Source of the DNA: a virus
Taxonomy: Duplodnaviria; Caudoviricetes
Virus record (IMG/VR): IMGVR_UViG_3300036833_000266
Span: 1-37,292 of that record
Strand: one strand, 5' to 3'
Length of the DNA: 37,292 nucleotides
Every line of letters starts with the position of its first letter. Position 1 is the stretch's first letter. Shown one piece after another: positions 7,081 through 22,766 of the stretch. A program made the position numbers and the translations under genes. The notes below the pieces were generated by a model. The model made no database searches, had not been told where the DNA came from, and was given only the letters and a program-made list of their open reading frames with translations.

Positions 7081-7087
7081 ACCCCTG

Positions 7088-7458: not shown

Positions 7459-7466
7459 AATACACC

Positions 7467-7864: not shown

Positions 7865-7876
7865 AGCAACAGCACA

Positions 7877-8377: not shown

Positions 8378-8967
8378 ATTCCAAATTCTATTGCGCAGTC
8401 GGAAGGGCGGATGATTCCCCGCGGCCGCGATCGGTCATACGGCACTGATCGCGACCATCGCGGGTGCAGGATGGTCCGTGTAGGATGGTCGGGCAGGAGC
8501 TTCGACTTTACATTATTCGTTTTGTCCGATGTTATTGGCAATGCCTTATTGCCGAGGCTCTTATTGGCCGACCAAAACAAGCCGGCCTTATCGCATGTCT
8601 TAAGCTTTCCAGGTTGGCCTCCATCGCGTTTTGATCTCGCGGCCGCCACATTTACACTCTGAAATCCAACCCTGGCAATTGTCGAACCGTTGTTTAATTG
8701 GTCGCGTCAATTGCTTGTTTTGGAGATCCCGGCCGCCATGTCTGCAGCCGTTTATTGGTTGCGTCCCACCATTAAAGGCAATGGTATACCAGTGCCAGGC
8801 AGTGTAGGCAGTGTAGGCAGTGGTTGCCTTTTGTTTTGGTTGGTTGGTCGTTTTTGGTTGGTTGTGTGTCTGTAGGATCTCTTGAGACGGAGAGCCACGC
8901 GATGAATTGAACGCGAGGATTGCAAAGCGCGACGTTAAAGCGAGTTGGCCGGCCGGCCTGGCTAGTA

Positions 8968-8980
8968 GCTAACCGTTAGC
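8968..8980. promoter_or_regulatory. Operator O1a (GCTAACCGTTAGC)
   Basis: Perfect 6-1-6 palindrome, 85 bp upstream of O1b. Confidence 0.75.
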
Positions 8981-9043
8981 AAATAGCATGCCAATCGTTG
9001 AGATTCGGCCGGCAATTATTTTTGTTTATTTTCGGTAGTGGCA

Positions 9044-9071
9044 TTGACTGTAGCTAACGGATAGATAAGCT
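9044..9071 (+). promoter_or_regulatory. Early promoter P1 with operator O1b in the spacer
   Basis: TTGACT-16 bp-TAAGCT, AT-rich tract upstream, GCTAACGGATAGA at 9053-9065, ATG 8 nt after the -10. Confidence 0.75.
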
Positions 9072-9079
9072 TGTAACAT

Positions 9080-9247
9080 ATGAATAATACGTTAGATACA
9101 ACTAAACAAACTATTAAATACGACTATGAGCATCAAGCTTGGGTCGTAAACGGCAAATATGCGTCTTGTGCGCATCCGGAGCAAATGCATTGCAAATGCT
9201 ACGGCAAACTGCACGAAGGCGAGATTTGCATAACGGAGGTCCACTAA
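9080..9247 (+). CDS. Small Cys/His protein (55 aa, leaderless; not in ORF track)
   Basis: MNNTLDTTKQTIKYDYEHQAWVVNGKYASCAHPEQMHCKCYGKLHEGEICITEVH; stop 1 nt before next gene. Confidence 0.75.
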   Translation: MNNTLDTTKQTIKYDYEHQAWVVNGKYASCAHPEQMHCKCYGKLHEGEICITEVH

Positions 9248-9248
9248 A

Positions 9249-9593
9249 ATGCCGTACATAGCTACAGACAAAGTAAAATTAATGCGCTCAAATATCCGGA
9301 AAGCTTTACCGGGATACGTTGTGAGCGTCACAAAACATCACCATTCGACGGTAGACGTTCGTTTAATGTCGGGGCCGATTCCGCCGGTAGACGTAAACGT
9401 TTACTGGTACAGAGAGCACCTACAGAATAATCCCGACGCACTAGCGTTGGTTGAAACAATCATGTCGGAGATTGACAAGGTGCAGACATCTCGCGAGCTC
9501 GTAAATGATGGCGATTATGGAAGCGTCCCAACGTTTTATATTAACGTCTCGTTTGGCAAATGGGACAAACCCTATGTGCAGGAGGTCAAATAA
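9249..9593 (+). CDS. Conserved phage early protein (possibly LPD29-like)
   Basis: 'IRKALPGY..SV...H.S.V.V..MSGP...N.Y...FYI....GKWDKPY'; tightly coupled to neighbours. Confidence 0.6.
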   Translation: MPYIATDKVKLMRSNIRKALPGYVVSVTKHHHSTVDVRLMSGPIPPVDVNVYWYREHLQNNPDALALVETIMSEIDKVQTSRELVNDGDYGSVPTFYINVSFGKWDKPYVQEVK

Positions 9594-10444
9594 TGACGCT
9601 TTTATCGATTGGCAACGATAGCAAAACGGTCAAAGGCGAAAAATTCGGTTTTGTGACCGGGATTCAATATTTTGCGCCGGCGCATTTAGCAGGCAACGGG
9701 ATTAATGTTTGCAAATTCGCGACAGTGCATTGCAAAGCGGCTTGCCTATATTCGGCCGGCCGCGGGATCATGAGTAACGTGCAAAAAGCGCGGATTGCCA
9801 GAACGCAATTCTGGTACGCGAATCCGACGCGTTTTCTTGCGCAATTGGAAAGCGAAATTTCGGCCTTAGTTAAAAAGGCGGAAAAAGCCGGAATGCGTCC
9901 AGCTATTCGTTTGAATGGGACCAGTGACATTTTGTGGGAAAAGACTGGAATTCTTGAGAGATTTCCTCATGTCCAGTTTTATGACTTCACGAAATATCCG
10001 GCCGGCCTTCGCCAGAATTTGCCTGGCAATTACCATTTGACCTATTCATTTACCGGCCTGGCAATATCGGCCGAATTTTCGGATGCATGGGCAAAACGCG
10101 GAATTAATACGGCTGTCGTTTTCAAGGTTAAAAAAGGCGAACCCTTACCGGCCGAATTTTTTGGCCGGCCGGTCATCGACGGAGATTTGTCGGATTTGCG
10201 TTTTGCGGATCCGGCCGGGTGCATTGTCGGCCTTCGTGCGAAGGGGAAAGCTCGCGTTGGGATCTCGCCTTTTGTCGTTGAAGTGAAAGAAGGCCTGGCA
10301 ATCTGGCCGGCCGCGGATCCGGCCGCGGAAAAGGAAGTTGAGCGAATCATGGCCGCGGCCGCGAATCTCGGAAAAGTAACACTAAAGCCGATGTCAATTC
10401 CAGTCGGTACGGATCCGCTCGAGATCAAAGCTTGGACAGCCTAG
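9593..10444 (+). CDS. Gene product 88 (GP88)-family protein
   Basis: 'N.KT.K...APA...NVC......C...CL..AGRG...ARI.RT...RLNGTSDI.WE...FYD.TK...NYHLT.S...DGD..DLRF.DP...VGL.AKG'; SD GGAGG, TAATG overlap. Confidence 0.85.
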   Translation: MTLLSIGNDSKTVKGEKFGFVTGIQYFAPAHLAGNGINVCKFATVHCKAACLYSAGRGIMSNVQKARIARTQFWYANPTRFLAQLESEISALVKKAEKAGMRPAIRLNGTSDILWEKTGILERFPHVQFYDFTKYPAGLRQNLPGNYHLTYSFTGLAISAEFSDAWAKRGINTAVVFKVKKGEPLPAEFFGRPVIDGDLSDLRFADPAGCIVGLRAKGKARVGISPFVVEVKEGLAIWPAADPAAEKEVERIMAAAANLGKVTLKPMSIPVGTDPLEIKAWTA

Positions 10445-10531
10445 CGATTGCCTACAATAGCGGCCGGCCTGGAGAGATCCGCGGCCGGCCGTTATAAGGT
10501 CATCACAAACAACCAAAGGAGAAAATTCAAA

Positions 10532-10801
10532 ATGTATATGCGAGACTATTTCGGCCATGATGAAGAGATCCCGGCCGGATTTCAAGATGCCGACATCGAA
10601 ACGCGCGAGCTCGAGGCCGCGGCCGCTGAAACGCGCAATTTGCCGGCATTTCGTGTCATCTACACGGACGGAACAAGCTACGTTACGTCGATGTCCAAAA
10701 GCACAACCTTAGAAAATGCGCGAGCTTATTTTGTCGACGCGTCTATTGAACAAATGGACGGAACATGCAAACGCGTTTCAGATGTGCAGGAGATCAAATA
10801 A
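10532..10801 (+). CDS. Hypothetical early protein
   Basis: SD AAGGAG upstream of ATG 10532. Confidence 0.65.
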   Translation: MYMRDYFGHDEEIPAGFQDADIETRELEAAAAETRNLPAFRVIYTDGTSYVTSMSKSTTLENARAYFVDASIEQMDGTCKRVSDVQEIK

Positions 10802-10802
10802 C

Positions 10803-11096
10803 GTGAAAGCAATTCACTGGTATACAGACAAGAACGCGTTTCGCGGATTTAGGCCGGGGCAAATGATAACGTTTCGCGTCCCAAACGGCTTGAGCTTTAC
10901 AGGCAAGCAAGAATACAAGGTCAAACGAGGCAAAATTATAATGTGCTTCGAGAATCATGTTGTGGCTAATCATGGAAGCTTTGGGCAAGTTGTAAACGAT
11001 CAGAACTGCGTAACAAAGCCGAAACGAATTCCTAAAGGTGCAGTGATTCAACCTGGCACTGGCGGCCTGTTAGTGAAACGCGGGAGGGTCTTGTGA
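10803..11096 (+). CDS. Hypothetical early protein
   Basis: GTG 1 nt after previous stop; GTGA overlap with next gene. Confidence 0.6.
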   Translation: MKAIHWYTDKNAFRGFRPGQMITFRVPNGLSFTGKQEYKVKRGKIIMCFENHVVANHGSFGQVVNDQNCVTKPKRIPKGAVIQPGTGGLLVKRGRVL

Positions 11097-11275
11097 TAAC
11101 ACGCGACCAAATTTTGGAGGCTGTCGAGCGTGACGATTGCACGGGAATTTGCCTAGCTTGTAGAAACGAGCAAGGCAATTGCGAACCCGACGCGCGTAAA
11201 TACGAATGCGAAGCTTGTGGCGAGCTCAAGGTATATGGCGCAGAGGAATTGCTTTTCAAAATAGGAATGGACTAG
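11093..11275 (+). CDS. Zinc-ribbon phage protein
   Basis: 'GICLAC...CEPDARKYECEACG...VYG.EELL', two CxxC; SD GGGAGG. Confidence 0.8.
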   Translation: MITRDQILEAVERDDCTGICLACRNEQGNCEPDARKYECEACGELKVYGAEELLFKIGMD

Positions 11276-11289
11276 CGAATGAAACGAAC

Positions 11290-11328
11290 AAAGGCCGGCC
11301 GGGATTTGATCCGCGGCCGGCCTTTTTA
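11290..11328 (+). terminator. Rho-independent terminator of early operon 1
   Basis: AAGGCCGGCCG-GGAT / ATCC-GCGGCCGGCCTT stem followed by a T run. Confidence 0.8.
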
Positions 11329-11526
11329 CTGTACAGAATCAAGGACCAATGAAGACACGAATTCAGCCGGCCTGTCGGCCGCGGGATCCCGGCCGCGGCC
11401 GTTTATTGGTCATCTTGCCAGGCCGGCCGCGGGATCCGGATCCGGCCGGGATCCCGGCCGGCCAGACATGTTCTGCAGTGCATGTGCAATCGAACATGTT
11501 CGCTCGAGCACACGCGTGTGGCCGGT

Positions 11527-11655
11527 ACTTTGGATGGTCGACTTTGGATGGTCGACTCTGGATGGTCCGATGGTCGGCCGGCCAATGGCGAGCTCGTACT
11601 TTGGATGGTCAACTTTACAGCCGGCGAATCGCGCGATCGGCACTTTGGATGGTCG
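11527..11655 (+). repeat. Cluster of 14-bp direct repeats ACTTTGGATGGTCG
   Basis: Copies at 11527, 11541, 11555 (variant), 11598, 11642; partial at 11569; a distant copy at 12644. Confidence 0.95.
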
Positions 11656-11659
11656 ATCA

Positions 11660-11672
11660 GCAAACGGTTAGC
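11660..11672. promoter_or_regulatory. Operator O2a (GCAAACGGTTAGC)
   Basis: One mismatch from the palindrome; 84 bp upstream of O2b. Confidence 0.7.
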
Positions 11673-11734
11673 AAAAGTTGTGCCGAGAGGTCAGAACGTC
11701 GCGAAATAAAGCTGCAAATATTTTCAGGTTCCCA

Positions 11735-11762
11735 TTGACAATAGCCAACGGATAGCTAGAAT
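11735..11762 (+). promoter_or_regulatory. Early promoter P2 with operator O2b in the spacer
   Basis: TTGACA-16 bp-TAGAAT, GCCAACGGATAGC at 11744-11756, ATG 8 nt after the -10. Confidence 0.85.
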
Positions 11763-11770
11763 TGAGATCA

Positions 11771-11965
11771 ATGAATAAACACGAAAAGTTAGTAATGGAA
11801 GTTGCCGGTCGCGATTATGTGACCAGGCGACTTGGAAAGAAATCAACACACCACGTTTTGATTTTCGCTTGTCCAGGGTGTGGATCCGAAAAGCGATATT
11901 TCGCGAACCTGATTGGTTGCCGCGGCAATCCTGTTTGCGACGGAATCACGCAGAAACTTAGTTAA
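11771..11965 (+). CDS. Small Zn-binding protein (leaderless)
   Basis: CPGC...C...C; ATG 11771 directly after P2. Confidence 0.7.
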   Translation: MNKHEKLVMEVAGRDYVTRRLGKKSTHHVLIFACPGCGSEKRYFANLIGCRGNPVCDGITQKLS

Positions 11966-11983
11966 TTGGGAGGGGGCAAAATA

Positions 11984-12175
11984 ATGGAACACACAACTTG
12001 GCTTTACATCCAAAGCGAACGCGCCGGCCAAAAGATCTGCGATGGCGTTTACATGGAGCACAACCTGTTCACGGTGGGGTTCTACACTGCCGCTGGGAAA
12101 TGGGAACCGGAAAGCGATTTCAACACACGCGAACAGGCCGCGGAACGTGTCCACTACCTAAACGGTGGCAAATAA
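11984..12175 (+). CDS. Conserved small phage protein
   Basis: 'W.YI.SE...LFTVGFY...GKWEPESD...E.AA.RVHYLNGG'; SD GGGAGG. Confidence 0.75.
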   Translation: MEHTTWLYIQSERAGQKICDGVYMEHNLFTVGFYTAAGKWEPESDFNTREQAAERVHYLNGGK

Positions 12176-12252
12176 GCGAAGCAGTGTTCAACTGCACTGG
12201 TGTTCAGCCACTCATGCGCCGGCGTTGCTTGCCGGCAGTCGGCGCATGGAGG

Positions 12253-12426
12253 ATGAATACAAACAAAGTAAAACAGCCGAAAGCTCGCGGCAAGCCAGAA
12301 AGCACAAGCGATTTTAAAGCTCGGATTGCGCTTTTAAAACGCAACCAGGAAACAGGAAGAAAATATAGCCTCGTTGGTGCGAGTCGCGCCAGCGAATGCG
12401 AACTAAGGAGGAAACGATCCACATGA
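12253..12426 (+). CDS. Small basic hypothetical protein (start uncertain)
   Basis: 3' part of ORF 11998-12426; ATGA overlap with next gene. Confidence 0.4.
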   Translation: MNTNKVKQPKARGKPESTSDFKARIALLKRNQETGRKYSLVGASRASECELRRKRST

Positions 12427-12629
12427 GGCTTTCAATGAAAATATTCTTGCCGGTGCTAGCAGCGATTCTGACCGCAGTCGCAATCATTTACGCAATATCG
12501 CAAATCGATTTGTCAAACGGCCCTCCGAGCTTCGTGGGAAGCAAGCCAGGCTACATGGAAAACAGACAAAAGAAAGAGCAATTGGAATGGCTGAAAAAGC
12601 TCAAACGTATCAAGGAGGGAAAAGAATAA
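12423..12629 (+). CDS. Single-TM membrane protein
   Basis: N-terminal hydrophobic helix, charged C-terminus, AAGGAGG upstream. Confidence 0.65.
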   Translation: MRLSMKIFLPVLAAILTAVAIIYAISQIDLSNGPPSFVGSKPGYMENRQKKEQLEWLKKLKRIKEGKE

Positions 12630-12660
12630 CGCGCGTGGCCGATACTTTGGATGGGCAGAC

Positions 12661-13110
12661 TTATAGAATTCGCCGCCATCCGTCCGCGGTTTTTTGGTGG
12701 AGCTCGAAGAGGAACTGAGGCCAATAGGTTCGGGCATGTCGGAAACGCTCAATTGCCCTCTCGAATTTTCCTTTTGTAAAAGCACCTTTGACCTCGATCA
12801 ATTTGATCTGACCCGAAACGGCAATCGCCGGCGGAAAGACGACGAAGTCCGGTGTGTAACGGATGATCTCATCGCCAACAGGCCAACGCAGCGTGATCCC
12901 TTCGTAATCGTAGCGCAGGATCTCGTCGGTGCGTTTCATGTGCTCAAGAAGCACCGCGAATTCGCGCTCAGTCTTGGTTCTAAACGCCCTCGCCTTGCCA
13001 CCTGGCTTTGCGTATGCTTCACGTTTGTCGGCCGGCTGGGACATTGTGGCGGCGTTTCGCTCAAAGAACGTTTTAGAGGCTCTGGGGAAGATTTCACGCA
13101 AGCTTTTCAC
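12661..13110 (-). CDS. PD-(D/E)XK endonuclease (DUF1064-like, possible resolvase)
   Basis: 'KTEREFA...YE.ITL...RYTPDF...IEVKG'. Confidence 0.8.
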   Translation of the reverse strand: MKSLREIFPRASKTFFERNAATMSQPADKREAYAKPGGKARAFRTKTEREFAVLLEHMKRTDEILRYDYEGITLRWPVGDEIIRYTPDFVVFPPAIAVSGQIKLIEVKGAFTKGKFERAIERFRHARTYWPQFLFELHQKTADGWRRIL

Positions 13111-13322
13111 GGTTTCATTGCCCGAAGTTGGTTCTCGGCGGATCGCAATCGGCGTCTAAGCAAGAGCATGTAGTGACGGTACTCGTCCGAGTCGACAGGG
13201 TTGGCCTCCCAGCTTTCGTAGAGAGCCTGGAGTCCCTGGATTTTCTCGAGCTTTTTGATAACGGTCTTGCGATGAGTGAGCTCTTCATTCCAAGTTTTGA
13301 AGTGGGTGTGTTGGTAACCCAT
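13107..13322 (-). CDS. Hypothetical protein
   Basis: Coupled by ATGA overlap within the leftward operon. Confidence 0.65.
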   Translation of the reverse strand: MGYQHTHFKTWNEELTHRKTVIKKLEKIQGLQALYESWEANPVDSDEYRHYMLLLRRRLRSAENQLRAMKP

Positions 13323-13330
13323 TAGTTTGC

Positions 13331-14026
13331 TTATAACGGCAATCCGTATTTGTGGATCTTGTCGTCATCTTTGAATTTGCGTTCAAAGAGTGGTTTATCG
13401 GACCGGTTAAGCCAGTTGATAAATCGGCGGCGTGTAGGCTGAACTTTGTGTTCCTTGCTCCAGCGAACGCATTTGGCGTGTTCGCGTTCAACGTCGATCC
13501 CTTTGTAAGCCGGATCGGTTTTTAGTTCTTCAATCCATTTGGAGGACGAATTTTCTTTTTCTTGTACAACTTCTTTTTCTTTTGCTTCTGCATCTGCTTC
13601 TGAGTGTGTTACATTTGTTACAGTAACATCTGTAACATTCCATAACGCTTCATCTGTTACATTCTTATTCTTGGTCCTGTGTTGCGCGACTCTGAGCCTG
13701 GTTCGTTCCCTCTGGATTTCCCTGCTCAACATGGTTCGGTAATATGGGGCTTTGAGAACCATCCAGCCGTTTGGGACTCTCTCGATTCGGCGACCGTCAA
13801 ATTCATCATTTGGACTTCGTTGGTCGGGTGATTCAAGGACCTTTAACGCGTGGACGAGTTTTTCAGTTGGGACATTGGCCCGACGCGCCAGGTTTTCATC
13901 GCAAGAGAAAGGACAGAACCCATCCTCATCCATTGCCGCCAGCATTGTGATCCAGACGATCCTGGTTACGTCTTCTTCCAGCCAGATGGATGAATCGAGA
14001 ATCTTCGTAAAAAGCCGATTATACAT
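13331..14026 (-). CDS. Phage replication initiator (replisome-organiser type)
   Basis: 'MYNRLFTKILDSSIW...LARRANV...ESPD...DGRRIERV..GW...R.RV..HR', then a VT-rich linker encoded by iteron-like repeats and a C-terminal 'FINWL.R' domain. Confidence 0.75.
   Translation of the reverse strand: MYNRLFTKILDSSIWLEEDVTRIVWITMLAAMDEDGFCPFSCDENLARRANVPTEKLVHALKVLESPDQRSPNDEFDGRRIERVPNGWMVLKAPYYRTMLSREIQRERTRLRVAQHRTKNKNVTDEALWNVTDVTVTNVTHSEADAEAKEKEVVQEKENSSSKWIEELKTDPAYKGIDVEREHAKCVRWSKEHKVQPTRRRFINWLNRSDKPLFERKFKDDDKIHKYGLPL
13607..13661. repeat. Iteron-like TGTTACA/TGTAACA cluster (putative replication origin)
   Basis: TGTTACA at 13607, 13616, 13655; GTAACA 13623; TGTAACA 13631; next to a T-rich tract 13550-13585. 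Confidence 0.65.
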
Positions 14027-14093
14027 GATGAACCCATGTGAATGGACAGATCCGGTTGGATCTGCCCATTTAGGTGGTTTCACCTGGAACTCC

Positions 14094-14426
14094 CTAGCCT
14101 CCGTTGGGCGGCGGCGGCTCGGGTGCTGGTGTTGGTTCTGGTTTCTCCTCGGGTGTTTCTGTTTCTGTATCTGGCATAGGTTTCTCCTTTCTTGTTTTTT
14201 TCGTTTTCGTTTTTATTCTGGGTCTCTGGCCGCCCTGGCGGGTCCATGCTGTGAGCAGGCGGGCCCGATCGGCGCGGTTCTGGAAGACGGTGGTCACGAC
14301 GTGAAAAGCTCCCCTCTTCTGGAGTGCCGGCGCATAGCCGAGGGTTTCGGCGAAACGCACGAACTTTCCGGCCGTCGTTTTCGAGGCGAACGGCAGGCTC
14401 ACTGTGCGGATCTCCTGGTCAGCCAT
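14094..14426 (-). CDS. Hypothetical protein with acidic Pro-rich tail
   Basis: ATG 14426 overlaps the upstream gene; an internal SD+ATG at 14177. Confidence 0.55.
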   Translation of the reverse strand: MADQEIRTVSLPFASKTTAGKFVRFAETLGYAPALQKRGAFHVVTTVFQNRADRARLLTAWTRQGGQRPRIKTKTKKTRKEKPMPDTETETPEEKPEPTPAPEPPPPNGG

Positions 14427-14616
14427 GATGTGCAAGAAGAATGTAATTGGCGCAGTCATCGCAGACCGCCACCATTCTTTTTCGTCCGTTGTCGTCGTTT
14501 GTCAGTTCCAGAATATGCGTGGCTTTAGCGCGACACACCGGCAGACCGCTCACATCGGGGAATTCGCAGTAATGCCGGCTCTCTTTGAGCATGAATTGTT
14601 CGAGTTTTTTGTCCAT
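14419..14616 (-). CDS. Small Cys-rich protein
   Basis: C...C..ATH...CDDC; SD AAAGGA. Confidence 0.65.
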   Translation of the reverse strand: MDKKLEQFMLKESRHYCEFPDVSGLPVCRAKATHILELTNDDNGRKRMVAVCDDCANYILLAHHG

Positions 14617-14625
14617 TTGTTCCTT

Positions 14626-14778
14626 TCAACTTTTCAACAAAATCAAAAGCACTAACAAAATCGTGATGAGAGCCCCGGCTGCGGCGAGATGCATTGCGTG
14701 TTTGCGCTCCAGTTGTGCAACGATAAGACCTTTGTGATGGTGCAGTTCGTAAAGGTAACTAGTTATGGTCGGGATCAT
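14626..14778 (-). CDS. 50-aa C-terminally anchored membrane protein (not in ORF track)
   Basis: MIPTITSYLYELHHHKGLIVAQLERKHAMHLAAAGALITILLVLLILLKS; fills the gap exactly. Confidence 0.6.
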   Translation of the reverse strand: MIPTITSYLYELHHHKGLIVAQLERKHAMHLAAAGALITILLVLLILLKS

Positions 14779-15015
14779 TTATGTTATAAGTGTCTTGATT
14801 ACCTCGCGCTCCCTTTTCTCCACTTCTTTCTGGAATGCTAAAAGCTGCGGGAATTTTTCCGTAATGTGACTTCGAAGAATTTCATCGGCCATCTGGTCTG
14901 CAGTCGTCATCCTATCGCCATCCCCTACCCCTGCCGGCGATTTGGCTTTGGCTATCAGCCAGAGCCAACGCCAAACTTCGCGAGACAGATAGGTTGGTTC
15001 GCGGCGGATGCTCAT
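14779..15015 (-). CDS. Hypothetical protein, possible ribbon-helix-helix
   Basis: 'PTYLSREVWRWL..IAK...TADQMADEILR'; start 1 nt after upstream stop. Confidence 0.6.
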   Translation of the reverse strand: MSIRREPTYLSREVWRWLWLIAKAKSPAGVGDGDRMTTADQMADEILRSHITEKFPQLLAFQKEVEKREREVIKTLIT

Positions 15016-15016
15016 G

Positions 15017-15190
15017 TTATTCTGATTGTGGTTCGTCGGCTGCAAATTCAATTAGATTTGCAAATACTTCCGGTTCCAAAACAATTCGATTACGAGGATC
15101 ATCGGGATAGCCGTTTTCGGTAGTGAGAACGAGGCGGCCTAAGTCGTCCCAGGTCACATAAACGCTATCGCCTAGATATAATTTTTTCAT
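15017..15190 (-). CDS. Conserved small phage protein (57 aa; not in ORF track)
   Basis: MKKLYLGDSVYVTWDDLGRLVLTTENGYPDDPRNRIVLEPEVFANLIEFAADEPQSE; 'YLGD.VY...LTTENG...I.LEPEV' pattern; ATGA overlap. Confidence 0.75.
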   Translation of the reverse strand: MKKLYLGDSVYVTWDDLGRLVLTTENGYPDDPRNRIVLEPEVFANLIEFAADEPQSE

Positions 15191-15423
15191 TTCAATGTTG
15201 GTATCAGCCTTGAAAGGTCATGCCACATGCCGCCTTGAAACTGCGCGTCACGTTCCACTCGCAGCCGAGCCCGGCAGTTTGGGCAGCGGACCAGGCCGCC
15301 ATGAACATGAGTCGGCACACGGACGCCCTCGCCGCAGATGGGACAATCGTAGCTGGGCGCGTCATTATAGCTCTTGGCATGTTCAATCATGCGCTGGCGA
15401 TGTTTACGTTCTGCCTGGTCCAT
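15187..15423 (-). CDS. Zinc-ribbon protein
   Basis: CPIC...CPNC. Confidence 0.7.
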   Translation of the reverse strand: MDQAERKHRQRMIEHAKSYNDAPSYDCPICGEGVRVPTHVHGGLVRCPNCRARLRVERDAQFQGGMWHDLSRLIPTLK

Positions 15424-15436
15424 GTTAGTGGTTTAG

Positions 15437-16489
15437 TTATCTAACAAATACCTCGCTCTTAGTCGGCTTCGTTTTGGGTTTCTTTCTCTGCGCTTCCCAT
15501 TCCGCCCATGTGCTGGGAATACGAACGAAATTGGTTGGACTTTCTTTTTCATCTAAAAGGAACTTTTCCAATTTTGAAAATTCCGTGAAAGCATCTTCAT
15601 ACCGGCGTTTCTGTTTTGGATCAGTAACCCAATCGGGATGCAGACAAGACAGAATCAACAGGAAGACTTTTTTGGTCATAAAACCATTACGTCCCTGCAT
15701 GATTCGCTTTGCCTGATCTTGTTCAGCCTGTAACGTCGGGCCTATTCTTTTCACGAATGACTCGGTCTTCTCATGCAGATCGGAATAATAACTCGCTTGA
15801 AGCTCTCGCCTGACTCGTTCTTTTTCTCGGGCGATTGCTCTTTCCAGTTTTTCATGCTGGGACATTGAAAGCGTTTCGGGAGCAATTTCGCCGTTAGCAT
15901 CTCTAGCTCCTTCGCGCCGCATTCTTTCAAACGTAACGATGTCGCGCACCTTGCGATGACCAATTCCGACTGCCGCGGCAATTTCAGCGTAAGACAGTCC
16001 TTTATCATAAAGGGCAATGATTTCTTCCTCGGCGTAATGCGGTTTAAGAGGCTTGTCTTCCTTTTGGCTTTTCTTGTTAGGCCGCACCGCTTTGCCGGTT
16101 GCTTTCAGATTCTCTATTCGCTTGTCGAATTCCTCTTCCGAAATCTTGGCAAGTTTTTGCGCCCGACTGCTCAGGTTCAGACTAATGCCAACATCCGAGA
16201 GCTTGATTTTCCCGTTATCCTCGCCGCGGATAACGGCTCTGTCTGGATGATGATCATGCGTGATCTGTCCTGCCTTTTTGCCAGCGATGATTATCTCGCC
16301 GAGTTTGCGTTCCGCCATGAGAACGTACTCAGTAACCTTGACTTGAATCTCTTGTCCGACTTTGTGTTGCTGCGCGTACACCTTCGCGGCCGCCAGCACA
16401 TCAAGCGTGTCCTTAACTTCCTGCATAGTTGTTGCGGCTTGAATCGCTTGGTAAACAACATCCAGTTTGGCTAGTGATGTATCATCCAT
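15437..16489 (-). CDS. Multidomain DNA-binding protein: helical N-domain, central HTH, C-terminal J-domain-like HPD motif
   Basis: 'AERKLGE...LSD.GI...SSRAQKLA', 'GLSYAEIAAAVGIG...V', 'ILSCLHPD...YEDAF'. Confidence 0.65.
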   Translation of the reverse strand: MDDTSLAKLDVVYQAIQAATTMQEVKDTLDVLAAAKVYAQQHKVGQEIQVKVTEYVLMAERKLGEIIIAGKKAGQITHDHHPDRAVIRGEDNGKIKLSDVGISLNLSSRAQKLAKISEEEFDKRIENLKATGKAVRPNKKSQKEDKPLKPHYAEEEIIALYDKGLSYAEIAAAVGIGHRKVRDIVTFERMRREGARDANGEIAPETLSMSQHEKLERAIAREKERVRRELQASYYSDLHEKTESFVKRIGPTLQAEQDQAKRIMQGRNGFMTKKVFLLILSCLHPDWVTDPKQKRRYEDAFTEFSKLEKFLLDEKESPTNFVRIPSTWAEWEAQRKKPKTKPTKSEVFVR

Positions 16490-16523
16490 AAAAGTTAGCC
16501 TCGCCCCCGAAGGGGCGAGGCTA
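16490..16523 (-). terminator. Strong C(UUCG)G hairpin (terminator/attenuator) abutting a start codon
   Basis: Minus strand TAGCCTCGCCCC-TTCG-GGGGCGAGGCTA-ACTTTT-ATG; perfect 12-bp stem. Confidence 0.75.
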
Positions 16524-16528
16524 TTGGA

Positions 16529-16960
16529 TTAATCGTTATTGTTCCCATCTGGAACAATTTTGCCGTCCACTGTTTGCCGCCGTGTTTTGCGGTCAGCGTC
16601 GTAACGACGCAACACAACCCCTAATGACCTGACCAATGTTGCGAGCTTACGTTTCGCTAATGGGTGATGCTCTGGATCTTCCTTTCTCGCTGCATCACGA
16701 ATCATTTGCGCCGCTATGATATTGTCAGCACTTAGCGATCCTTCAACCGCATCTGTATCCCAAACCGCTTCTAAAAGAGCCCTGAATTCAGGGCTCTTAT
16801 TCACTAATACTTCAAGCACATCTTCAACATGATCGTTGATAGTGCGATGGCCTTGTAAGGTCCGTTGCCAGTCTTCCATTTTGGCTGGCAACTGGGTTGG
16901 ACGCGGCCTTAATTGCTGTATTTCTGTCTTACTCTCTGTTTCTGTCTCTGCTTCTATCAT
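16529..16960 (-). CDS. Hypothetical protein
   Basis: Open frame with A-rich leader in the leftward operon. Confidence 0.65.
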   Translation of the reverse strand: MIEAETETESKTEIQQLRPRPTQLPAKMEDWQRTLQGHRTINDHVEDVLEVLVNKSPEFRALLEAVWDTDAVEGSLSADNIIAAQMIRDAARKEDPEHHPLAKRKLATLVRSLGVVLRRYDADRKTRRQTVDGKIVPDGNNND

Positions 16961-17009
16961 TGTTTTCTCTTTCTGTTTTTGGCAAGCACTATGCATTGCC
17001 TATTTCTGT

Positions 17010-17159
17010 TTACCTTCTTCTTCTAAATGCTATGACGACTAACAACGCAACGATCACAGTTACAGCAATCCCTATATCTATGCGAAGTGCGCTCAGATCA
17101 TTGTGCAGCGTTGTGAATGCCTTGAGCAGTTGTTCGGTCTGTTGGGCCAGGTCAGTCAT
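17010..17159 (-). CDS. 49-aa tail-anchored membrane peptide (not in ORF track)
   Basis: MTDLAQQTEQLLKAFTTLHNDLSALRIDIGIAVTVIVALLVVIAFRRRR; ATGA overlap. Confidence 0.65.
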   Translation of the reverse strand: MTDLAQQTEQLLKAFTTLHNDLSALRIDIGIAVTVIVALLVVIAFRRRR

Positions 17160-17482
17160 GTTGCCATCCAGACTATACAAAACTTGCCAGTCGGACCTTT
17201 GCGACGTTTACCAGAATCAATGACAAAACCCTTTCGGACCAATGGCCGAATGCGCGGACTGACTGTATTCCAAAGAAGCCCTGTGAATCTCACGATTTCG
17301 TGCATGGTCAGTCCTAGTGGAAACTTTCGTAAAACGGAGAGCACCACATATTCCAAGCAGGTAGCTTTCTCGCCGGCAAGATCGTTTGCCGCGGCATGAG
17401 AAGTATCGGGATCGCTCCAGCGAGCGTGAGCTTCCCCGAACAGGTCTGGTGTCTCATCCTTGTTCTTTCTGCGATCCCTCAT
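17156..17482 (-). CDS. Winged-helix DNA-binding protein
   Basis: 'HAR.SDP.TS..AA...VL..L...T..EI...G....VSPR...L...G.V.DSG.RR...VW'. Confidence 0.75.
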   Translation of the reverse strand: MRDRRKNKDETPDLFGEAHARWSDPDTSHAAANDLAGEKATCLEYVVLSVLRKFPLGLTMHEIVRFTGLLWNTVSPRIRPLVRKGFVIDSGKRRKGPTGKFCIVWMAT

Positions 17483-17768
17483 GTTCCATGTCCCTATCGG
17501 GCATAATTCGTACAAAGCCGGCACGGGCTGCCTCGATGAAAAGAGTGCCTACGGCCGCCCGAAACATTTCCCCCGTCTGCGCGATCGGTGGGACGTTGGG
17601 CGCAACGACCTTGTCGACGCATTTAACGGTAAGGTTATAAAGGTTGGCCGCTTTCTGGAGATACCTTCGAGCTTCTTTAACACCGTCGGAAACTTCCGTT
17701 GCCGGTTTGCCTTCCATGACGGCTTTTGCCTTTTTAAATTCAGAGCCTGTCTCAGAAGGGGATTCCAT
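17454..17768 (-). CDS. Hypothetical protein
   Basis: SD GAGGAGG; overlaps neighbours in the operon. Confidence 0.6.
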   Translation of the reverse strand: MESPSETGSEFKKAKAVMEGKPATEVSDGVKEARRYLQKAANLYNLTVKCVDKVVAPNVPPIAQTGEMFRAAVGTLFIEAARAGFVRIMPDRDMEHEGSQKEQG

Positions 17769-18180
17769 CGTCGTCCTCCTCTCGAGTTGTGGCTCGAGTC
17801 GTGATCGGTGCTGATACCCTGGCCGGCTTGCTCACTGGCTGGGCAGTGGATCTCACCGGTTTGTCAGTTTTGGTCCTAACACGAATTGTATCTACGAGTT
17901 CCCCCTGAGGATTTTCCGTTTCTGTAGCGTACAGAGTAATCTTTTGACCAATCCAATCATCGAACTCAATGCTGCCGATTAATCGAGCAATGGTTCGCGC
18001 ATTGGTTTTATTACAGGTGAATCCCTTCTTAAATTCCTGAAAGTAAATGACAGGCACGGTGTCGCGGTCCCGTCCGACTTCCTCGAGACTGATGCTCTCG
18101 ATTGTGACTTGCTGCGAACCTTCGTCTGGGAGGTCGCCGACTTTAAGATATCTGCTGGGATAGGCATCGTTGATGTTCAT
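17752..18180 (-). CDS. Putative single-stranded DNA-binding protein
   Basis: 'YPS.YLK..DL...VTI...NKTNA..I...DDW.G..I.L...IRV' and SSB-type acidic tail EEDDDGIPF. Confidence 0.75.
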   Translation of the reverse strand: MNINDAYPSRYLKVGDLPDEGSQQVTIESISLEEVGRDRDTVPVIYFQEFKKGFTCNKTNARTIARLIGSIEFDDWIGQKITLYATETENPQGELVDTIRVRTKTDKPVRSTAQPVSKPARVSAPITTRATTREEDDDGIPF

Positions 18181-18434
18181 TCGCTGTAGTTCCTTCCTAC
18201 CTCTTCCGAGAGGCTCATGGTGTTATCGTCATTAGTTGTGGGGCTTTCCCCGAGAGGCAGTTCCGCTTGCTTATGTTTTGACTCCCGCCGGCGCGGGAGC
18301 AGTGCTGCCTCGGTCAGGATGTACTCAAGTTCAATGAATGCCTTTGTTGCTGGGCTAGGGATCATCATTCCTTGGGCAATGATGTTCCAGCGTTGTGCGA
18401 TCTTGCGCTTGAGCGCGTTGTTACCAGTGCTCAC
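18177..18434 (-). CDS. Hypothetical protein
   Basis: Coupled by 4-nt overlaps on both sides. Confidence 0.6.
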   Translation of the reverse strand: MSTGNNALKRKIAQRWNIIAQGMMIPSPATKAFIELEYILTEAALLPRRRESKHKQAELPLGESPTTNDDNTMSLSEEVGRNYSE

Positions 18435-18685
18435 TTGAGCGTCCTTCCGTTTAGTTTTGGCTGAAGCGTTCGCCGCGACTGATATGCTTCGATGTCAGCG
18501 AGGCGAACGTGATGGCTATGTTTGCCGTGAATGATTACGGGCAAATTCGCGCGAACCCAGAGCGGCGTTTTTTTAAGTAGCTGCGCAGCACCAGGAACAG
18601 TCACTTCTTCTACCGCAGCTTCACGGCGAATACGTTCCTTCAACCGATCGATCTCGCGCTCCAATTGCCTCAGTGCAGTTGTCAT
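18431..18685 (-). CDS. Excisionase-like HTH protein, copy A
   Basis: 'VTVPGAAQLLKKTPLWVR...VRLADIEAY'; SD AAAGG; paralog of 20712-21032. Confidence 0.7.
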   Translation of the reverse strand: MTTALRQLEREIDRLKERIRREAAVEEVTVPGAAQLLKKTPLWVRANLPVIIHGKHSHHVRLADIEAYQSRRTLQPKLNGRTLK

Positions 18686-18912
18686 CTGAGGAGTGCCTTT
18701 TTGAGTCGTCGGCGTTTTACTGTGATGCGGCGGCGAGGGTCACCATCGTCCACAGCCGATATCATCCCCTCAAAGAGCCGACCAATTGAGATGTGTCGCT
18801 CCCAGGCGAGCTTGGAGGCTCGCGCTTTGGCAACGGGATCCACCAATAAGTTGAGCTTTTCACCTGTGATTTGCCTTCGCGGCCGACCTCTTTTTTTCGC
18901 TCTTGTCTGCAT
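18682..18912 (-). CDS. Ribbon-helix-helix regulator 1 with AT-hook-like KRGRPR (Cro-like position)
   Basis: 'KLNLLVDP..KARA.KLA.ER..SIGRLFE..I'; first gene of leftward operon. Confidence 0.75.
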   Translation of the reverse strand: MQTRAKKRGRPRRQITGEKLNLLVDPVAKARASKLAWERHISIGRLFEGMISAVDDGDPRRRITVKRRRLKKALLR

Positions 18913-19083
18913 CGCAGTGAGGGTTTTTCCCACCAAAATTTCCGGTGCATTTTATATGCGTAATGCGCAGACAATTGACAAGAAAAAACTTGCACTTACT
19001 ATTTTATGGCGTATAAAAATCGAAACTTGCCCATGTGAATCCCGTATTAATTCTTGCCGGGACTTTTCTTCAACCTGCTCCTT
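18913..19083. promoter_or_regulatory. Divergent control (immunity) region
   Basis: AT-rich; TTGACA-16-TACTAT (18975-19002), TTGCAC-16-TATAAA (18990-19017); near-palindrome TTTTAT-GGCGT-ATAAAA (19002-19018) and related ATTTTATATGCGTAATG (18949). Confidence 0.65.
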
Positions 19084-19329
19084 ATGCCTCAAAAACAACA
19101 ACCGAAACGTGTGTTTGTAGCCCATTCCAAACGTGATAAGCGTTTGGTGAAACAGTTGAAACAGAAGTTGAGCCTGACGGTAACGCCGGCGAGTCGAGCT
19201 AAAGCAGAACGGGTCGCCGCAAGAGAACACCGCAGTGTGTCCTCACTATTCGAGCATTTGATCGATTTGGAATTTCGAAAGATTGCCGGGACTAGGAGCA
19301 AACGGCGAAGCAATCCTGCTTTCGCTTAA
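19084..19329 (+). CDS. Ribbon-helix-helix regulator 2 (repressor-like position)
   Basis: 'KQKLSLTVTP..RAKAE.VA..E.RSVSSLFE.LI'. Confidence 0.75.
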   Translation: MPQKQQPKRVFVAHSKRDKRLVKQLKQKLSLTVTPASRAKAERVAAREHRSVSSLFEHLIDLEFRKIAGTRSKRRSNPAFA

Positions 19330-19511
19330 GAGATGAAGATCAAAAGTTCGTCTGCGTCTTCGATCAGTCGCTCGAATAGTTGCGCCACCGTGATCCCGTA
19401 CATGGCCGCTAGCAGCAGTGCCTTCTTGTTCGAGTCATCCGATATTCGCAAATCCAAACGTTCACGCGATGGCTCTTGCAAGCCGACAAATCGTCGCGGT
19501 CGTTCAGGCAT
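19326..19511 (-). CDS. Ribbon-helix-helix regulator 3
   Basis: 'RLDLRISD....KA..LA...GITVAQLFERLI'; divergent from integrase. Confidence 0.7.
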   Translation of the reverse strand: MPERPRRFVGLQEPSRERLDLRISDDSNKKALLLAAMYGITVAQLFERLIEDADELLIFIS

Positions 19512-19584
19512 TGGGGATAAAGAGTGTGTGGGACGGAACCTTATCACTAGCCGGTTCGCTTCTGGTTAACAAGGCATTTTTAAA

Positions 19585-20715
19585 ATGAAAATTGGTCACA
19601 TAAAAATTATCGTTCGCCAGTACGCCGATGGACGCTGGGGGTTTGATGATTATTCACAGGGCGAGCGGCGAATGGTACGGTTCGGGAGCAAAGAGAAAGC
19701 CGAGGCGCGAGCCACTGATATTGCTGTTCTTCTGGCAAACGGTCGCAACGATCTGCTCGACATCGATCTCGCGGAACTGGCAGAATTTAGGGCATGGAAA
19801 GTCGAGCGTAGTCGCAGCCGGCCATTCGGGGAACTGTGCAATGAATTTCTGCAGGTTAAATCCACGACGAGCAGTCGTCACTTTCGATCGCTTACAAACG
19901 ACATCAGACTGTTTGAGCAATTCATTGGATCTACACGACCGATAGCAACGATCTTGGCACCAGAGATCCAACGTTTCCTTGATTCACGCAGTGCCGGGAT
20001 GCGTCGGAAAGCAAATCTGCGAGCAGCAGTCGTCAACCTGTTCTCCTGGGCGAGACGAATGTCCTATCTGGATCGGGATCGCACAACTGAAGCAGAGAAA
20101 GTCGACCGCATTAAAATCGCGCCAGGCGAAGCAAATATTATCACGGCAGATCAAATGCGAACGCTGATCGGAAACGTTCAACAGCATTTTATGCCGTGGC
20201 TTTTGATCGGCGCATTCGCCGGCATTCGCTCGGAGGAAATCGCGCCTGATCCAGATTCGAAAAAGTCGCCACTGATGTGGGAAGATTTTGATTGGAAACA
20301 CAATATTATTATCGTTCGGGCGGCGACAGCCAAAACGCGTCAGGAACGCGAGGTGCCGATTCTACCCAATCTGGCTCAGTGGCTGGCGCAGTATCGTTCG
20401 GCAAATGGTCCAGTCCTTGGCGATGCCGAACAACCCAGCAAACGAGAAGCCACGCGCATCGGGGAATTCATCGGCGGCTGGAAACACAATTGTCTGCGAG
20501 ACTCATTCTGTTCGTATCGGACGCGAATGACGCAGAACGTTCCGCAGGTTTCCTACGAGATGGGCAACTCAATCCCGATGGTCAAACGTTCTTATCATCG
20601 TCGCCAGCCAGTCCAGGCCGCTCGCGAATGGTTCAATATTCGACCGGCGAAAAGGTCTTCTAATCTGGTACTTTTTGATACTTCAAAAGCTCAGAGGACG
20701 AAAAACGTCCATTGA
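19585..20715 (+). CDS. int: Tyrosine recombinase / phage integrase
   Basis: AGIRSEE (R), AKT (K), HNCLRDSF.SY, MGNS, RSY (Y); attP-like site downstream. Confidence 0.93.
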   Translation: MKIGHIKIIVRQYADGRWGFDDYSQGERRMVRFGSKEKAEARATDIAVLLANGRNDLLDIDLAELAEFRAWKVERSRSRPFGELCNEFLQVKSTTSSRHFRSLTNDIRLFEQFIGSTRPIATILAPEIQRFLDSRSAGMRRKANLRAAVVNLFSWARRMSYLDRDRTTEAEKVDRIKIAPGEANIITADQMRTLIGNVQQHFMPWLLIGAFAGIRSEEIAPDPDSKKSPLMWEDFDWKHNIIIVRAATAKTRQEREVPILPNLAQWLAQYRSANGPVLGDAEQPSKREATRIGEFIGGWKHNCLRDSFCSYRTRMTQNVPQVSYEMGNSIPMVKRSYHRRQPVQAAREWFNIRPAKRSSNLVLFDTSKAQRTKNVH

Positions 20716-21032
20716 TTACGACTGCATTGAGGCAACTAGAGCGCGAGATCGACCGGCTCAAGAAACGTATTGGGCGTGAGGCTGACAGATTTGCTGGCAT
20801 ACAAGAACTGACTGTTCCTGATGCAGCAAGATTACTTAAAAAAACTCCGCGATGGGTTCGTGCAAATTTACCCGTAGTCGTTTACAGCAAACGCAGTCAT
20901 CATGTACGCCTTGCTGACATTGAAACGTTCCAGGCACGGCGCATTCTCGAGCCATCGCGCGATCGCCAGTGCAAACAGCAAAGTTTGGTACTAAAGTACC
21001 AACCGAAAAAAAGTACCAAAAAGTACCAATAA
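20712..21032 (+). CDS. Excisionase-like HTH protein, copy B
   Basis: Clear paralog of 18431-18685; TTGA overlap with int stop; 3' end runs into att arm repeats. Confidence 0.65.
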   Translation: MITTALRQLEREIDRLKKRIGREADRFAGIQELTVPDAARLLKKTPRWVRANLPVVVYSKRSHHVRLADIETFQARRILEPSRDRQCKQQSLVLKYQPKKSTKKYQ

Positions 21033-21197
21033 AATGATACCAAGCCAACTGTTTGAGAACCACCGACGATCTTCCTCACCTATGAAACACGATTTTGCCT
21101 GGGTAGCCAAAGCGGATTCAAATCCCGCCCCCGCAATACCCCATTTTCATAGGTAAACTCGTTAGACCAACAAAAAAAAGTATCAGAAAAGTACCAA
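20985..21197. mobile_element. attP: tRNA-fMet 3'-end core flanked by integrase arm-type repeats
   Basis: Core TTCAAATCCCGCCCCCGCAA (21117-21136) equals T-loop to discriminator of bacterial initiator tRNA; AAAGTACCAA at 20993, 21010, 21020, 21188, inverted at 20985, variant at 21177. Confidence 0.85.
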
Positions 21198-21241
21198 ATT
21201 TTGGTTGCGCTGGGCAATAACGGGGCGTAACGATTTAGTCC

Positions 21242-21469
21242 GTGACTGAGCACCATCTGCCAGCCGGCGAATCTTTTCCCGTCTGGCAACTCGCTCAATT
21301 GTTTCATGTCTCGGATCAGCACCTGGTCAACTTAATCGAGGAAGGCGAGCTCTACGCGTTTGATTTGCGCGGGAAATCCTCGAGTCGTTCGTGTGTCCGA
21401 ATTCCTCGCAACGCACTGATCGAATTCCTCCAAAGACGCCAACTCAAGGATGGCAAAATCATAGTTTGA
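21242..21469 (+). CDS. Excisionase-family (HTH_17-like) protein
   Basis: 'V.QLAQLFHVS.QHL.NLIEEGEL.A....RIPR.AL.EFL.RR'; next to attP. Confidence 0.8.
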   Translation: MTEHHLPAGESFPVWQLAQLFHVSDQHLVNLIEEGELYAFDLRGKSSSRSCVRIPRNALIEFLQRRQLKDGKIIV

Positions 21470-21499
21470 CTTCCATGCTGGCCGCTGCTAACGGTTAGC
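21466..21499 (+). promoter_or_regulatory. Promoter P3 overlapped by perfect operator O3a (GCTAACGGTTAGC, 21487-21499)
   Basis: TTGACT-17-TAACGG with TG extension (imperfect -10); palindrome ends 2 nt before ATG 21502. Confidence 0.65.
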
Positions 21500-21501
21500 T
21501 C

Positions 21502-21663
21502 ATGGATGAAAAAGAGTTGATCAGACAAGCCATGTCTGTGCTCGGCAGCCGAACGAGCGAACGCAAGAAAGCCAGTTCTCGAGCGAACGCGAAGCTGCCG
21601 CGGAAGCGCGGGAAGAAAAAAAGGGTTGCGACTAGCAAACTGATGGCTAATGTGGCGGCCTAA
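21502..21663 (+). CDS. 53-aa basic protein, candidate repressor (not in ORF track)
   Basis: MDEKELIRQAMSVLGSRTSERKKASSRANAKLPRKRGKKKRVATSKLMANVAA; TAATG overlap with next gene. Confidence 0.7.
   Translation: MDEKELIRQAMSVLGSRTSERKKASSRANAKLPRKRGKKKRVATSKLMANVAA
21626..21653 (+). promoter_or_regulatory. Promoter P4 with degenerate operator O3b in the spacer
   Basis: TTGCGA-16 bp-TAATGT; GCAAACTGATGGC at 21635-21647, same register as P1 and P2; ATG 9 nt after the -10. Confidence 0.55.
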
Positions 21664-21872
21664 TGAACATAATTGATCTGCTAGTACAGCAACCGTGGCT
21701 CATATTGCCGTTGGTGGTGTTAATCTTCGCAGCGATCTGGGGCGCAATCGGCGTCGTAATCGCCGAGAAGTCAGGGAATCGCGCAAGTGTCGGATTTGTT
21801 TGTGGCGCAGTCGCTGGTCCGTTGGGCTTGTTTATTCTATGGCTGGACCGCAACAATCCAGTGAATAAATGA
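21663..21872 (+). CDS. Small membrane protein (2 TM)
   Basis: 'G..IAEKSG....GF..G...GPLG..IL'. Confidence 0.75.
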   Translation: MNIIDLLVQQPWLILPLVVLIFAAIWGAIGVVIAEKSGNRASVGFVCGAVAGPLGLFILWLDRNNPVNK

Positions 21873-22081
21873 AAGTTGAAGAGATCAAATTATTGGTAGA
21901 ACGCGAACCGTTTCGTCCGTTCCGCATCCGCTTATCTAATGGTGCGACTTATTCATTCAACGAACGTCGCGATGTCGGTGCTCCGCGAAAGCTCTCTCAT
22001 ACGCTGGTCTATTTTGGCGAGACAGAACTTGCCCTGATCGATATCGAAAACATCGTAGAAATTTTCAACGGATCAGAATGA
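21869..22081 (+). CDS. Small beta-rich protein, 'PF.PFRI.L..G..Y' family, paralog 1
   Basis: 'LVEREPFRPFRIRLSNGATY...IDIENIVEI'. Confidence 0.75.
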   Translation: MKVEEIKLLVEREPFRPFRIRLSNGATYSFNERRDVGAPRKLSHTLVYFGETELALIDIENIVEIFNGSE

Positions 22082-22308
22082 TTTCGAACAAACACATTTT
22101 GCAATACGTTAAGGAAGACGTCCCGTTCACCATTTATTTAACTGATGGCCGCAAATTCCTGGTGAAGGACAGGCATTGGATTAGCACACATCCTTCCGGC
22201 CAGAGTAGTACAATCATTGTTTACGGACCGGATCCTGGGTCTTTCGATTTGATTTCACTTCTCGCCATTACCAGTATTGGCCGGAACGGTAGCAAACATT
22301 CAAAATGA
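22078..22308 (+). CDS. Small beta-rich protein, same family, paralog 2
   Basis: 'VPFTIYLTDGRKF.V...ISLLAITSI'. Confidence 0.75.
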   Translation: MISNKHILQYVKEDVPFTIYLTDGRKFLVKDRHWISTHPSGQSSTIIVYGPDPGSFDLISLLAITSIGRNGSKHSK

Positions 22309-22493
22309 AATACATCGTCATCATCAGTGTAGCAGCAGGAATCTTGCTCGGCTGGTGGTTTGTTCGAGACTGCGAGCGGTACGACGACGAGCACTTCGCC
22401 GTCAACGATGATTATCAGCACTGGACTCTCGCCGGCTGGAATCGGTGGAAAGAACTCCATCGGGATCGACCGGCGGAACCGCAAGATCAATGA
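22305..22493 (+). CDS. Small N-anchored membrane protein
   Basis: N-terminal hydrophobic helix; ATGA overlaps. Confidence 0.65.
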   Translation: MKYIVIISVAAGILLGWWFVRDCERYDDEHFAVNDDYQHWTLAGWNRWKELHRDRPAEPQDQ

Positions 22494-22765: not shown

Positions 22766-22766
22766 A

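Follow-up and report, generated by a model that had tools for sequence, protein, structure and literature searches.

The 37.3-kb virus record IMGVR_UViG_3300036833_000266 (37,292 nucleotides, referred to here as the window) carries a 13-bp palindrome at six dispersed sites, which raises the question of what protein reads this element and which genes it controls. An earlier reading, made from the sequence alone, had assigned the palindrome to one regulator of three operons. We consider it probable that the palindrome is the operator of a 53-amino-acid (53-aa) protein encoded at positions 21502 to 21663 of the plus strand. Judged by comparison of sequences, this protein would bind as a dimer and likely repress its own weak promoter as well as three stronger, likely leaderless promoters of the sigma-70 type that serve small early or accessory genes. 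The sequence-only reading had put the whole forward as the best candidate for an undescribed system. What emerges appears to be a real regulon whose regulatory logic is of a known kind, and it is the DNA-binding module that appears to be undescribed.

All six sites (8968, 9053, 11660, 11744, 21487, and 21635) could be retrieved at the positions first given for them. With up to two mismatches allowed, the window contains five matches to the palindrome, against 0.83 expected, and none of 100 shuffled sequences reached five. With up to three, the count is ordinary and uninformative (16 against 11.0 expected), so that 21635, with three mismatches, is not established by the consensus alone. The symmetry extends beyond the 13-bp core to ∼17 bp. 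When a symmetric 17-bp matrix is used, the six sites score 20.3 to 26.1 bits, and the next window position scores 8.5. In leave-one-out matrix scans, every site ranks first, including 21635 (16.1 versus 9.6 for the runner-up). Five of the six sites are noncoding, and 21635 lies within the 3′ end of open reading frame (ORF) 21502.

Three of the sites coincide with predicted promoters on the plus strand. A scan of both strands of the entire window for the proposed geometry (a −35 element, a 16-bp spacer with the palindrome, and a −10 element) returned precisely the three elements already described, with −35 elements at 9044, 11735, and 21626 and an ATG 8, 8, and 9 nucleotides (nt) past the −10 element. 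These are P1 (9044 to 9071; −35 at 9044 to 9049, −10 at 9066 to 9071, ATG at 9080), P2 (11735 to 11762; 11 of 12 consensus positions, ATG at 11771), and P3 (21626 to 21653; within the last codons of the regulator gene, ATG at 21663). Since the distance from −10 to ATG is too short for a ribosome-binding site, the messages from P1 to P3 are likely leaderless. Operator 2 (core 9053 to 9065) abuts the −10 element of P1, operator 4 (core 11744 to 11756) lies inside P2, and operator 6 (core 21635 to 21647) lies in the spacer of P3. A preference of the host for 16-bp spacers could not be shown. One further promoter-like element with a 16-bp spacer, lacking an operator, is present at 18975 to 19002, near ORFs resembling ribbon-helix-helix (RHH) proteins.

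The remaining three sites fall into two groups. Operator 1 (8966 to 8982, with a perfect core at 8968 to 8980) and operator 3 (11658 to 11674, core 11660 to 11672, one mismatch), neither of which is assigned a strand, are the upstream partners in the P1 and P2 regions. Operator 5 (perfect core 21487 to 21499) covers the −10 element and start of a predicted weak promoter directly 5′ of ORF 21502 that had been overlooked (21466 to 21501, plus strand; −35 at 21466 to 21471, 17 bp, poor −10 at 21489 to 21494; ends 2 nt before the ATG). Thus, the claim that each spacer site has an upstream partner holds for 8968/9053 and 11660/11744 but not for 21487, which is best read as the regulator’s own operator. 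The supposed third pair, 21487/21635, is also unlike the others in being 148 bp apart, compared to 85 and 84 bp, with a whole gene between.

The 8968 and 11660 regions align with two homologous loci, L120 and L132, as a single cassette in which the order is operator, sigma-54-like box, T-rich tract, −35 element, operator, −10 element, and ATG. The T-rich tract, at 9016 to 9035 between operators 1 and 2 (no strand assigned), is kept in the L120 and L132 cassettes. Operator-to-operator distances of 85, 84, 74, and 73 bp (94 bp in L115) are near whole helical turns, and a 10-bp insertion or deletion separates the versions. The sigma-54 consensus is GG-N10-GC (TGGCAC/TTGC), and reverse-strand boxes with one mismatch to it, also overlooked in the sequence-only reading, are found at 8979 to 8993, where the −12 GC forms the edge of operator 1, and at 11671 to 11685, where the box runs into the edge of operator 3. 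The window has just one other box that departs from this consensus at no more than one position. Related viral loci (L225:4963, L227, L229, L231, and L244) carry a near-perfect sigma-54-like box followed by half-site-like sequence, with no regulator.

The likely regulator is a basic protein with predicted helices at residues 3 to 16 and 20 to 31, followed by a basic tail. It has no match in Pfam, PHROG, or NCBIfam and no sequence match in the PDB. A word-based homolog search retrieved only the protein itself; a profile search was needed, and it gave at least 282 clusters at E values up to 0.001. Across 110 clusters, G15, K22, and N29 do not vary, and A10, M11, L14, and S19 are almost as constant. 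None of 32 family members matched a relevant Pfam family, AT-hook and KGG families included, and PHROG searches over 110 members gave stray matches only. The AlphaFold2 model consists of helices plus the tail (mean predicted local distance difference test score, 88). Foldseek returned nothing, the best fold match had a Z score of 3.1 at a root mean square deviation of ∼12 Å, and the ESM Atlas gave unnamed clusters only. Family scans gave no helix-turn-helix (HTH) or RHH match, and the model shows no RHH strand, although it is a monomer model and RHH strands form only in dimers.

Ten ORFs were compared as candidate regulators. Relatives of 21502, and of no other candidate, occur in each of the four long contigs that carry operators (G001, G005, G006, and G008/L120), so that the 21502 product, already proposed as a protein to test, is by comparative evidence the best predicted binder. 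The RHH-like ORFs have no relatives in these contigs, in keeping with the earlier view that the regulon is separate from the RHH switch. A repressor of the CI/LexA type would be expected to carry an HTH domain and an S24 peptidase. As previously stated, none was found: the 66 window ORFs scanned against Pfam and PHROG include no HTH_3 or S24 match, although weak HTH matches occur at 15437, 17156, and 21242, and part of the phage genome is probably missing from the contig. In one of the related contigs, a second small basic ORF (G001:C1:16424-16564) resembles the family’s first helix and has no operator close by.

The link between this protein and the palindrome is carried by its relatives. We gathered 103 homologous loci, to which a metagenome scan contributed the best 80 of 94, and collapsed them into 27 clusters with a window-like first helix and 19 others. 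A de novo palindrome search of the 27 clusters, with the window excluded, gave aaGCTAACcGTTAGCtt at a log-likelihood of 181, compared to 36 for the other group and 24 to 25 for shuffled sequences. The resulting matrix ranks the six window sites 1 to 6, and so motif discovery on related genomes, suggested beforehand as a check, recovers the same palindrome. Sites of at least 12 bits within −300 to +450 of the gene were found in 19 of the 27 clusters with this matrix, which was trained on the same loci; in 16 when each cluster was left out in turn; and in 9 with a matrix built from the window only, for which 0.03 sites are expected per zone.

Promoter geometry is partly conserved as well. The window register, with the core 3 nt past the −35 element in a 16-bp spacer, recurs in eight other clusters, and L121 and L139 repeat the arrangement of 21487 at the regulator’s own promoter. 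Sites in relatives also occur at offsets of −1, +1, +2, +7, +8, +14, and +15 and in 17-bp spacers; the register, supposed beforehand to be fixed, is thus common among relatives but variable. In L120, homologs of the window GP88 and 11093 ORFs lie in an operon directly behind the regulator, and in L132, a homolog of the 11771 ORF does so, which ties the dispersed operons of the window to the regulator gene. Paired sites in trans are present in L120 and G005. Sites at several operons, as expected of such a regulon, are seen only in the window, L120, and G005; in G001 and G006 clear promoter-linked sites occur only beside the gene. Stand-alone members at L140:411-1168, L137:167-893, L138:67-1010, and L129:1851-2814 stand first in operons that contain an integrase gene, an HNH-like gene, or genes for HTH_17 proteins, and the module appears, from such gene contexts, to regulate varied mobile-element genes. 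Palindrome-only viral scans gave the regulator gene at 2 of 94 loci, both from one lineage and the others unrelated; a strict spacer-register scan gave one locus without a regulator gene; and palindrome matches in G002 and G003, in or at replication genes, were not used. Locus L296, from genome G063, was left out before counting, and none of the claims made here depends on it.

A family profile search of 301 Acidobacteriota genomes gave matches in 24. Many of these matches are C-terminal tails of other proteins, namely, DUF2442 proteins encoded behind DUF4160, HicB-like proteins behind HicA, and small CxxC proteins. The core motif is S-x-x-K-x-x-[AS]-[AS]-R-x-N, followed by GGRP or PRK-like residues. 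A first motif search on tail-bearing loci locked onto the codons of the tail and was redone on upstream DNA; the initial count of 0 of 19 for distant relatives was likewise discarded as a negative control, given that these relatives have CC-type sites at a greater distance upstream. A de novo search upstream of 33 clusters (88 loci) then yielded AACCtAACcGTTaGGTT, with a log-likelihood of 106 versus 36 for downstream DNA. At 12 bits or more, this palindrome occurs in 20 of 33 upstream regions and in 1 of 31 downstream controls. It typically fills the spacer of the operon’s own promoter-like element, which in toxin-antitoxin operons is 17 bp long. Related loci of the HicB-like group number 45, of which 29 score 10 bits or more. 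The protein motif and the palindrome thus co-occur across phages and bacteria, and variant palindromes are found in Acidobacteriota, Pseudomonadota, and phages. In a virus recorded with a Methanomicrobiales host (L248, BK063671.1, positions 1470 to 2599), an operon holding a tail-bearing protein is preceded by a promoter of bacterial type that contains a variant palindrome (11 bits).

DUF2442 loci served as a control. By Pfam match, 99 loci were taken from Acidobacteriota and Pseudomonadota (59 top scoring and 40 picked by frame length among the matches listed), 6 of which were skipped for short upstream DNA. A site was present at 3 of 4 tail-bearing loci and at 0 of 89 tail-less loci (P = 3e-5). 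The three positives, which represent two phyla, had not been used for training; the one tail-bearing locus with no site is the gene that also served as training locus L205. The outer base of the palindrome varies with the tail: among 40 clusters with sites, GG tails go with C in 21 cases, G in none, and ties in 3, and other tails go with G in 12 cases, C in 2, and ties in 2. Putting these observations together, we lean, by a narrow balance of judgment, toward a minimal, undescribed module in which one basic helix and a GGRP/PRK tail, ∼25 residues in all, read a palindrome with an AACnGTT core. In this module, the tail would set the outer base pair. Across phyla the module would have been put to use both by itself, as a master repressor of phages, and as the domain through which DUF2442 and HicB antitoxins regulate their own operons.

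For the window, the following course of events can be envisaged. A dimer of the 53-aa protein would block RNA polymerase at four promoters. Upon entry into the cell, with no repressor present, the three operons would fire as a burst; as the protein accumulated, it would shut these operons off, following the logic of zygotic induction. At two promoters, a second operator 84 to 85 bp upstream (approximately eight helical turns) may tighten repression by looping. The element that reads the DNA is likely the second helix together with the basic tail, the part that would serve as a portable module when fused to DUF2442 and HicB-like antitoxins.

Several results weigh against this account. The predicted monomer lacks a compact domain (predicted template modeling score, 0.40). 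Among the close clusters, 8 of 27 have no site near the gene, one of which (L113) has a pair 2.4 kb away, and 13 of the 33 distant clusters fall below 12 bits. Helical phasing over all 17 operator pairs is not significant (7 of 17; P = 0.09). The DUF2442 control includes only 4 tail-bearing loci, and 40 of its 99 loci were chosen by frame length to enrich for tails. Covariation of tail and outer base amounts to only three to four changes on a poorly resolved 25-column tree (35 untied rows) and is not significant once kinship is considered. Finally, no target gene encodes a confidently known anti-defense protein, the one LPD29 match being below the Pfam cutoff.

Other explanations were weighed against the same data. 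The recurrence of one register in eight other clusters would suit activation, in which the 53-aa protein twists the short 16-bp spacers of P1 to P3 into register and represses only its own promoter. Activators that bind promoter spacers do exist in the MerR family and provide a precedent. We nonetheless favor repression, because the register of the sites is variable (many offsets, as well as 17-bp spacers) and because the site fills the 17-bp spacer of toxin-antitoxin operons, in which autorepression is the rule; P2, moreover, already matches 11 of 12 consensus positions. Activation is improbable. We consider it very improbable that the palindrome is read by a transcription factor of the host, whether LexA-like or not, with the small gene merely one of its targets. 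Such a factor would fit the lack of a CI-type match among the scanned phage ORFs. However, the site follows the tail rather than the host or the operon type: in the same two phyla, none of the 89 DUF2442 loci without a tail has it, and no other observation argues as strongly against a host factor. In addition, the variant palindromes span Acidobacteriota, Pseudomonadota, and phages, and five bacterial genomes, none known to be the host, contain zero or one near-match each.

Binding by another phage protein, whether one of the RHH-like ORFs (14779, 18682, or 19326) or the HTH protein at 21242, has the least claim and is very improbable. RHH dimers are reported typically to bind short palindromes (PMC6294495), and homologs of the 21242 protein are found near the regulator in L121 and L120, yet the three RHH-like ORFs lack relatives in G001, G005, G006, and G008/L120, the HTH protein has one in only one of the four, and none of these proteins accounts for the toxin-antitoxin operons. 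A different proposal, which would add to repression by the 53-aa protein rather than replace it, is that the main role of the upstream sites is to gate divergently oriented sigma-54 promoters, from which the repeat-rich noncoding DNA left of 8968 and 11660 would be transcribed. The 52 strong sites have 11 TTGC operator edges, and 5 of these, in 4 contigs, are overlain by a box with at most one mismatch, compared to a background of 0.0036 per TTGC. Four of the five boxes, however, derive from one homologous cassette, and the fifth faces the opposite way; a viral scan for a box plus half-site gave 29 loci, with the regulator only in the already known G005; and there is neither a convincing leftward ORF nor an Rfam match. 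We regard such gating as unlikely but deserving of some weight.

Under repression by the 53-aa protein, the predicted targets would be three plus-strand operons. Target operon 1 (9080 to 11275) comprises small ORFs, an LPD29-like ORF (9249, below the Pfam cutoff), GP88 (9560), and a Zn finger-like ORF (11093). Target operon 2 (11771 to 12629) comprises small ORFs. Target operon 3, the extent of which is tentatively placed at 21663 to 24385, comprises small membrane and unknown ORFs as well as a phage protein with several C2H2-type zinc fingers (23256 to 24032), and it precedes the head genes. LPD domains have been proposed to help early invasion (PMC5512222), LPD29 genes have been found in aca4 operons (PMC13551039), and Lar restriction-alleviation domains occur in the G005 operon. 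From the subthreshold LPD29 match, this literature, and the Lar domains, an anti-defense role for the targets is only suggested.

To the left of operator 3, the noncoding stretch from 11276 to 11655 contains GC-rich hairpins and approximately five copies of a ACTTTGGATGG-type repeat, a further copy of the 26-nt unit being found at 12629 to 12654, at the distal end of operon 2. In L120, the position corresponding to the noncoding stretch is taken by a triple repeat of another kind. Positions 8380 to 8960 (∼600 bp) contain no convincing ORF and carry short tandem repeats (AGGCAGTGT three times and TTGG runs), with blocks in common with 11376 to 11480. The repeat-rich noncoding stretches have no match in Rfam.

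As for the record itself, Mu-like head genes, tail genes, and a tyrosine integrase are present, and the contig ends lack a terminal repeat, from which we take it to be a probably incomplete fragment. A soil metagenome is the only listed holder of the sequence, with no RNA data set listed for it, and in one DNA run, possibly the source of the contig, coverage is unbroken over 6000 to 25000. Among the head genes, ORF 31654-32079 encodes an Acb2/Tad1 hairpin domain (Pfam PF24729, above the cutoff), possibly an anti-defense nucleotide sponge, and is flanked by a glycosyltransferase-9 gene and a methyltransferase gene. An 808-aa ORF at 28481 to 30907 is an apparent fusion of DUF6582, a Mu-like protease, and the major head protein, with a full-length homolog in G008. 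Inverted paralogous ORFs at 18431 to 18685 (minus strand) and 20712 to 21032 (plus strand), which share 162 bp at 75% and 71 bp at 83% identity, bracket the RHH-like ORFs and the integrase; no inversion joint between them is listed in the one DNA run.

To our knowledge, new classes of prokaryotic DNA-binding domain are rare, and the present module comes with a predicted operator, a predicted specificity switch, and an easily tested 53-aa protein. If correct, the proposal would explain what an as yet unannotated tail does in many antitoxins of the DUF2442 and HicB types, and the operator could serve as a searchable tag for early or anti-defense operons in phages of uncultured soil bacteria, pointing, much as with Aca proteins, to genes for early host takeover or anti-defense. 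Synthetic circuits, too, would profit from a repressor this small whose specificity can be tuned. Literature searches on the operator, the tail peptides, and the concept returned no relevant report, although most subscription journals and supplements lay outside these searches, so that absence from print is not established.

Parts of the module and of the regulon logic have counterparts in known systems. Short basic Gly-Arg-Pro or Lys-Gly-Gly stretches, present in many family relatives, recall AT-hook and KGG-repeat peptides; unlike an AT-hook, however, the window protein lacks GRP, and its target is a specific 13- to 17-bp palindrome rather than AT-rich DNA. Autorepression has been reported both for HicB (10.1101/2023.12.08.570793) and for DhiTA, the DUF4160/DUF2442 pair (PMC8198452). 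In these systems a C-terminal domain binds a palindrome in the operon promoter, the same position at which the window motif sits in HicB-like and DUF2442 antitoxins. The binding domains that the relevant passages report for HicB are HTH, RHH, and Phd/YefM only (10.1101/2023.12.08.570793), unlike the window motif, and the passages on DhiTA name no operator or binding domain for DhiA (PMC8198452).

With respect to regulatory logic, the small phage proteins Aca1 to Aca14 repress their own and neighboring operons through promoter sites (PMC13551039), and the logic proposed for the window is alike, including in comparison to Aca14. Aca proteins are described in that source as HTH or RHH proteins defined by linkage to acr genes, whereas the window protein has no HTH or RHH match and no acr family was identified among the window ORFs in Pfam, PHROG, and NCBIfam scans, which include no dedicated Acr library and leave most targets unannotated. 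Another close parallel is the Reg576 regulon of the Bacillus plasmid p576 (PMC6294495). Reg576 is an RHH protein that recognizes direct heptamer repeats on a conjugative plasmid; in the window, the operator is an inverted repeat, the element is an integrase-bearing phage, and no beta ribbon is predicted. The window nevertheless shows one feature of an establishment regulon, namely, an operator shared by several dispersed predicted promoters, that of the regulator included. As described for Reg576 (PMC6294495), a small repressor acts on its own promoter and on several others at dispersed positions, strong promoters carry two operators and the weak promoter of the regulator carries one, as in the window, and expression is transient after entry into the cell, which is what we likewise propose for the window regulon.

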